NCBI GenBank assembly: GCA_028534125.1
Contig: CM052841.1
Span: forward strand, 40,858,001-40,922,000
Source: Lama glama
Taxonomy: Eukaryota
Reading direction: 5' to 3'
Length of the DNA stretch: 64,000 bases
Positions 32,341 to 32,506 of the stretch are shown piece by piece; position 1 is the stretch's first letter, and the number at the start of each line of letters is the position of its first letter. A model generated the notes under the pieces. The model had not been told where the DNA came from. It saw nothing but the letters and a program-made list of their open reading frames with translations, and did no database searches. Made by a program: the position numbers and the translations under genes.

Positions 32341-32506
32341 CTGCAACTTTAAGTAGAGCTTCATATCACCCCACTGCGAATGATGAGGATTCTTCTTCAC
32401 AATACATTTAAGAGCTGGTTCTCTTTTTTCTAAATCACAATCTTTCAGGAGGTATTCCTGTTTTGCTTCTGTTTTAGTTATAAGCTTGTGTTTATCATCA
32501 GCATCT
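32341..32506 (-). CDS. XPA: XPA exon 4: [55 protein letters not shown]
   Basis: ttttcAG / GTCTCT; 166 nt; DNA-binding domain including W175. Confidence 0.97.

Follow-up and report, generated by a model that had tools for sequence, protein, structure and literature searches.

In ALKBH2 peptides, the PCNA-binding motif known as APIM requires an aromatic residue at position 2, where Tyr can replace Phe and Ala fails, and in ALKBH2 itself the motif sits within the first seven residues (PMC2742182); APIM peptides have been found to bind PCNA in the mode of a PIP-box (PMC6881253). Human XPA carries a match to this motif, KFIVK, at residues 163-167. Gilljam et al. (2012) reported that an XPA peptide binds PCNA and that the F164A substitution lowers FRET with PCNA in XP-A cells, although not in HeLa cells, while the mutant protein still colocalises with PCNA (PMC3496702). 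In the same work, F164A repaired more slowly: the share of cells with unrepaired 6-4PP at 4 h was 50% for F164A versus 37% for the wild type and 91% for the null, and F164A was also above the wild type for CPD (83% versus 73%) and for S-phase arrest (70% versus 43%) (PMC3496702). These data are real evidence that residue 164 matters, and the effect is mild. A packing defect, however, would be expected to give this phenotype too, and the passages of the study accessible to us deal with FRET, peptide binding and cell phenotypes, and contain neither fold stability nor a structure of the complex (PMC3496702). As far as the portions of the literature at our disposal indicate, the XPA-PCNA link originates with a single group, from its motif scan and one mutant to Ala (PMC2742182, PMC3496702, PMC9739396, PMC11274875).

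The other described counterpart is the human tumour variant F164C, which is of unknown significance and was among 27 XPA variants assayed by host-cell reactivation, seven of which were deficient (Blee et al., bioRxiv 10.1101/2021.11.08.467747). The parts of these reports that we could consult name three deficient variants (M113I, D114Y and Y148D) and two that are not (F112C and R130I) (PMC10946055), and describe changes at C126 as profound (bioRxiv 10.1101/2021.11.08.467747). Two to three deficient places are then left among the other 20-21 assayed variants, a weak hint that F164C is tolerated. We found no publication on a natural Cys164 allele in a search whose coverage excluded most subscription journals.

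The window analysed here, a stretch of 64,000 nt, carries an XPA gene on its minus strand, the six exons of which (Table 1) join into an uninterrupted reading frame of 822 nt (273 aa) with canonical splice borders throughout (AG 5' of exons 2-6, GT 3' of exons 1-5). The codons AAA TGT ATT GTG AAG, read from 32409 down to 32395, place Cys164 (codon 32406-32404) within KCIVK.

Table 1. Coordinates of the XPA features within the window.
Feature	Position	Strand	Remark
XPA coding exon 1 (from ATG)	42629..42800	-	172 nt
XPA exon 2	38538..38648	-	111 nt, GGGF motif
XPA exon 3	35190..35295	-	106 nt, C4 zinc finger
XPA exon 4	32341..32506	-	166 nt, contains Cys164
XPA exon 5	30364..30481	-	118 nt, contains Ser196
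XPA coding exon 6 to TGA stop	22306..22454	-	149 nt
TGT codon, XPA Cys164 (human Phe)	32404..32406	-	codon reading
KCIVK, XPA residues 163-167, corresponding to the human APIM (KFIVK)	32395..32409	-	164-167 modelled as beta-strand
XPA Trp175 codon, intact	32371..32373	-	tip of the DNA-intercalating hairpin (PMC11445577)

The predicted protein has the length of human XPA (NP_000371.1, P0208; PDB 1XPA, 6LAE, 6RO4), with which it shares 252 of 273 residues; unlike the human protein, which has Phe at position 164, it has Cys. Over the stretch encoded by exon 4 (human residues 131-185), 53 of 55 residues are identical, P161A and F164C being the two differences. All the landmarks compared are unchanged, namely G72-F75, C105/108/126/129, W175, K168, K179, S196, C261 and C264. 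The Pfam domains XPA_N and XPA_C score 53 and 92 bits (cut-offs 27.1 and 25) in the dromedary orthologue P0001, which equals the window protein at every residue of 98-219. Judged by domains, frame and landmark residues, the gene is an intact member of the XPA/Rad14 family at the sequence level. The preliminary description was right as to the position of the Cys codon, the residue numbering, the broken APIM consensus, the intact zinc finger, GGGF, W175 and S196, and the location of residue 164 in the globular domain, where it falls in a strand of the modelled fold; its premise that the aromatic residue is key in APIM agrees with the ALKBH2 peptide data (PMC2742182). A minor point concerns the start codon, which is preceded by TTG GAG at 42801-42806 on the minus strand, the dromedary protein starting two residues earlier, with Met-Glu.

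A base-call error, or an allele private to one animal, was also put forward in the preliminary description, an assembly error is a further option of this kind, and the difference from the human codon is indeed a single base read from an assembly. The closest named protein, however, is the dromedary XPA P0001 (270 of 273 residues identical), which has Cys164 as well in spite of differing from the window protein by E83D, A240V and M262T, and a second dromedary entry, P0285, agrees with it at this position. Exon 4 has a single match in its own genome (four candidates scored), and with the exon being single-copy nothing points to contamination of the assembly by a paralogue or retrocopy. Because two dromedary proteins share Cys164, these sequences make an error or private variant very unlikely, and we give that explanation almost no credence. 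A search of sequencing runs with 54 sampled words, which is silent on the codon itself, returned five runs with all the words (possible sources, left uncounted), 15 with fractions of 0.15-0.94 and four with none. The cluster members listed (15 of 97) included no protein from further camelid species. The window genome is most likely that of a camelid other than the reference dromedary; the three differences suggest a South American camelid, and the change to Cys164 would, if that assignment is correct, be older than the split of the camelid family.

To place this residue in a wider context, we used a vertebrate-dominated set of 339 stored proteins, 10 of which lacked the motif region, leaving 329 rows. 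On the mammal side, where the 257 rows include isoforms and unnamed entries and are hence a count of rows and not of species, residue 164 is Phe in 247, Cys in seven and Tyr in three, and in the other 72 rows, mostly from birds and reptiles, it is Phe in 68 and Tyr in four. An aromatic residue is therefore present in 322 of 329 rows overall (250 of 257 on the mammal side and 72 of 72 in the rest), and neither Leu nor Ser was seen in the 257 mammal-side rows. Apart from the two dromedary entries, the Cys164 rows come from the aardvark (P0012), the European badger (Meles, P0177), and the ferret, black-footed ferret and stoat (Mustela P0122, P0149 and P0150), all five with KCIVK at the same place as the window protein and yet belonging to separate lineages. 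None of the ruminant, hippo or whale rows checked has Cys, and Phe is kept in American mink, Eurasian otter, sea otter and wolverine. Whether Cys is widespread among mammals, named in the preliminary description as a refuting outcome, thus has a divided answer, as Cys does recur, though rarely (in 7 of the 257 rows on the mammal side). Tyr164, which preserves the APIM consensus, is recurrent too, in blind mole rat, shrew, gundi, hummingbirds and tinamou (P0015, P0128, P0245, P0061-P0063, P0074).

With residue 164 masked, a tree of 60 species placed the aardvark among the afrotherians and the mustelids in a clade of their own. In topology tests on a 30-row subset, a single clade of all Cys164 carriers was rejected (p-AU 2.4e-5), as was a grouping of the camel with the mustelids (p-AU 2.1e-4), while a union of Mustela with Meles was not rejected (p-AU 0.20). 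On the standard mammal tree, Cys164 has at least three origins, and the accepted mustelid tree favours separate gains in badger and Mustela over one gain followed by several reversals. We conclude that Cys164 arose at least three times in mammals, and probably four. A count of nine changes at this residue, obtained on a poorly resolved gene tree, was set aside. Two further observations came from the same 60-species set: the aardvark protein carries S196N besides Cys164, the sole change at residue 196 among these rows, Ser196 being the ATR phosphorylation site; and residue 100 is a second column in which Phe gives way to Cys (Phe 57, Cys 3).

The same position was followed at greater depth in the best 150 of 1317 representatives at 50% clustering, 128 of which (unnamed rows) were ungapped over 160-171, retained N169-P170 and were used. 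Here residue 164 is Phe in 81, Tyr in 21, Cys in 18, Arg in three, His in three, Ser in one and Ala in one, while Leu, Ile and Val do not occur in the 128. Cys is accordingly the third commonest residue, even though several Cys rows look related and the 18 do not amount to 18 origins. The full APIM consensus is present in 55 of the 128 and missing in 73. Among mammals we inferred six to seven changes at this residue, every one of them to Cys or Tyr, an outcome whose probability would be about 1e-4 to 1e-6 under equal fitness of all one-step changes from TTT (assuming a TTT codon and kappa of 2-4). Because all these mammalian changes go to Cys or Tyr, site 164 is constrained on these alignments, with Cys in its accepted set. 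The top hits of a screen for covariation with Cys164 among the representatives (399 tests; A184, R179, A135, R166 and R168) probably reflect kinship, have no counterpart in the mammalian carriers and were set aside, and a search for local repeats that could have served as a mutation template for the Cys codon yielded matches of chance size only.

A first structure model, built from 37 close sequences, had pLDDT below 50 across the core and was discarded. The second, from 119 sequences, reached a pLDDT of about 97 near the site and showed strands at human positions 138-140, 164-167 and 178-182, bearing in mind that AlphaFold responds little to single substitutions; as modelled, the dromedary orthologue agrees with experimental structures of XPA (for 6LAE, the rmsd is 2.7 A over 115 columns). 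A review likewise places LKFI, residues 162-165, in a beta-strand, and notes that its deletion lowers RPA70 binding (PMC4710682). Because residue 164 opens a strand of a folded domain in the model, a PCNA motif acting like a peptide would hardly be expected there, and the XPA domain would presumably need to open its sheet to use KFIVK in that way. Set against the features of an APIM, the window segment has K/R at positions 1 and 5 and L/I/V/A at positions 3 and 4, as do the APIM of ALKBH2 and related PCNA-binding peptides, but has Cys where these have an aromatic residue at position 2; nor, on the model, is it flexible or terminal, as it is a strand in a high-confidence sheet inside a folded domain, unlike the motif of ALKBH2, although local unfolding could occur.

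We consider it likely that Cys164 is a tolerated substitution and that nucleotide excision repair operates at or near its normal level in the animals that carry it. Residue 164 is predicted to open the strand 164-167, whose partner at the base of the Trp175 hairpin is 178-182, and what maintains the site would be a role in packing the fold, one that suits Phe, Tyr and Cys and excludes Leu, Ile and Val. KFIVK may fit the APIM consensus largely as a consequence of being a basic, hydrophobic beta-strand, and any contact of folded XPA with PCNA might be indirect, independent of the ring, or too minor for selection to retain. That even F164A is mild in its effect, and still colocalises with PCNA, favours tolerance, as do the recurrence of Cys164 and the range of residues at depth; against it speak the strong conservation of residue 164, the lowered PCNA FRET, slower repair and increased S-phase arrest of F164A, and the binding of the isolated peptide to PCNA.

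An alternative is that the APIM is real in folded XPA, and that Cys164 weakens the coupling to PCNA at replication forks, a slight harm that drift, or a relaxation of UV selection, has fixed several times. The aromatic ring is lost both in the window protein and in the F164A mutant, which shows reduced PCNA FRET and repair (PMC3496702), and Tyr, which works in APIM peptides where Ala does not (PMC2742182), is the other recurrent residue at 164. The invariably aromatic residue in the mostly bird and reptile rows also fits, and we found no substitute APIM or PIP-box pattern elsewhere in the window XPA. The aardvark, badger and weasels are, moreover, furred or nocturnal or burrowing; the camelids, on the other hand, are sun-exposed. 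Under relaxed selection Leu or Ser would be expected as well, and neither appears in the mammal rows, while the consensus is missing from more than half of the distant representatives and the motif forms one strand of a sheet. In the F164A mutant the residue is an engineered Ala, found in 1 of 128 representatives, whereas Cys is natural and recurrent. On balance we regard a harmful loss of PCNA coupling as unlikely.

The restriction to Cys and Tyr admits another reading, since Leu and Ser are mutationally easier to reach than Cys, and the repeated appearance of Cys in their stead is as compatible with positive selection as with narrow tolerance. Parallel selection might have favoured Cys164 in the camelid, aardvark, badger and weasel lineages: it might uncouple XPA from PCNA, it might retune the contact with RPA70 or with PCNA, or its thiol, placed at the base of the hairpin that intercalates into and opens damaged DNA, might be redox-sensitive and so allow redox control. 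That Cys164 has at least three origins, the low probability of an all-Cys/Tyr outcome under equal fitness, and the lowered RPA70 binding when residues 162-165 are deleted (PMC4710682) can be cited in its support. Tolerance of three residues would, however, suffice to yield the same pattern, the carriers have no obvious common ecology, their near relatives keep Phe, and we saw no co-change with Cys164, and we find parallel selection, in either form, quite improbable.

Tolerance is also what pairwise comparisons over XPA 98-219 would lead one to expect. F164C is the only difference between ferret and mink, stoat and mink, and badger and wolverine; it is one of two between dromedary and cattle, and one of three between dromedary and Balaenoptera. 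The remaining window-versus-human differences in this region (P124A, P161A and E209K) are all common mammalian states, and the XPA carriers show no partner Cys or other co-change with Cys164. PCNA of the same genome (L004) matches the human protein in five of six exons compared, exon 2 being left out, with the exception of S223P (L004:6661-6783). The PCNA peptide pocket comprises residues 40-44, 117-135, 230-235 and 251-253 (PMC6881253); the Pro at 223 lies outside it, and the listed pocket residues in the exons compared are all identical to human. The rewiring of XPA-PCNA coupling suggested in the preliminary description accordingly draws no support, at the level of these sequences, from PCNA or from the rest of the XPA domain.

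That description had also proposed a lineage-specific change in a clade exposed to high UV in the desert or at altitude. Cys164 is indeed common to the window genome and the dromedary, and missing from the ruminant, hippo and whale rows mentioned above. Because the aardvark, badger and Mustela share Cys, and Phe is retained in mink, otters and wolverine, it does not behave as a high-UV signature. The carriers have no desert or altitude habitat in common, and the oryx, yak and pika rows have Phe164. On the published model, moreover, loss of the ring would lower UV repair instead of raising it (PMC3496702), and XPA goes unmentioned in the literature that we found, as far as we could consult it, on positive selection in camel or alpaca and ultraviolet. 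A camelid-specific adaptation to UV is, for these reasons, highly unlikely; Cys164 represents neither a new system nor a desert adaptation.

The value of the allele lies elsewhere. Ferret and mink XPA, differing by this one residue across the DNA-binding domain, are natural controls for whether an APIM acts in the folded protein. The tumour variant F164C is the identical substitution, and is of unknown significance in humans whereas Cys164 is the database allele in several mammals; these natural carriers argue that the human variant is probably mild or benign. Should parallel selection be true, the same tumour variant would correspond to an allele repeatedly favoured in other mammals.

Outside XPA, the plus strand of the window holds exon-sized frames between 1998 and 19000, three of the four tested matching Pfam MIF4G_like or MIF4G_like_2, one of these above the cut-off. 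These frames presumably belong to NCBP1, convergent with XPA as in human.
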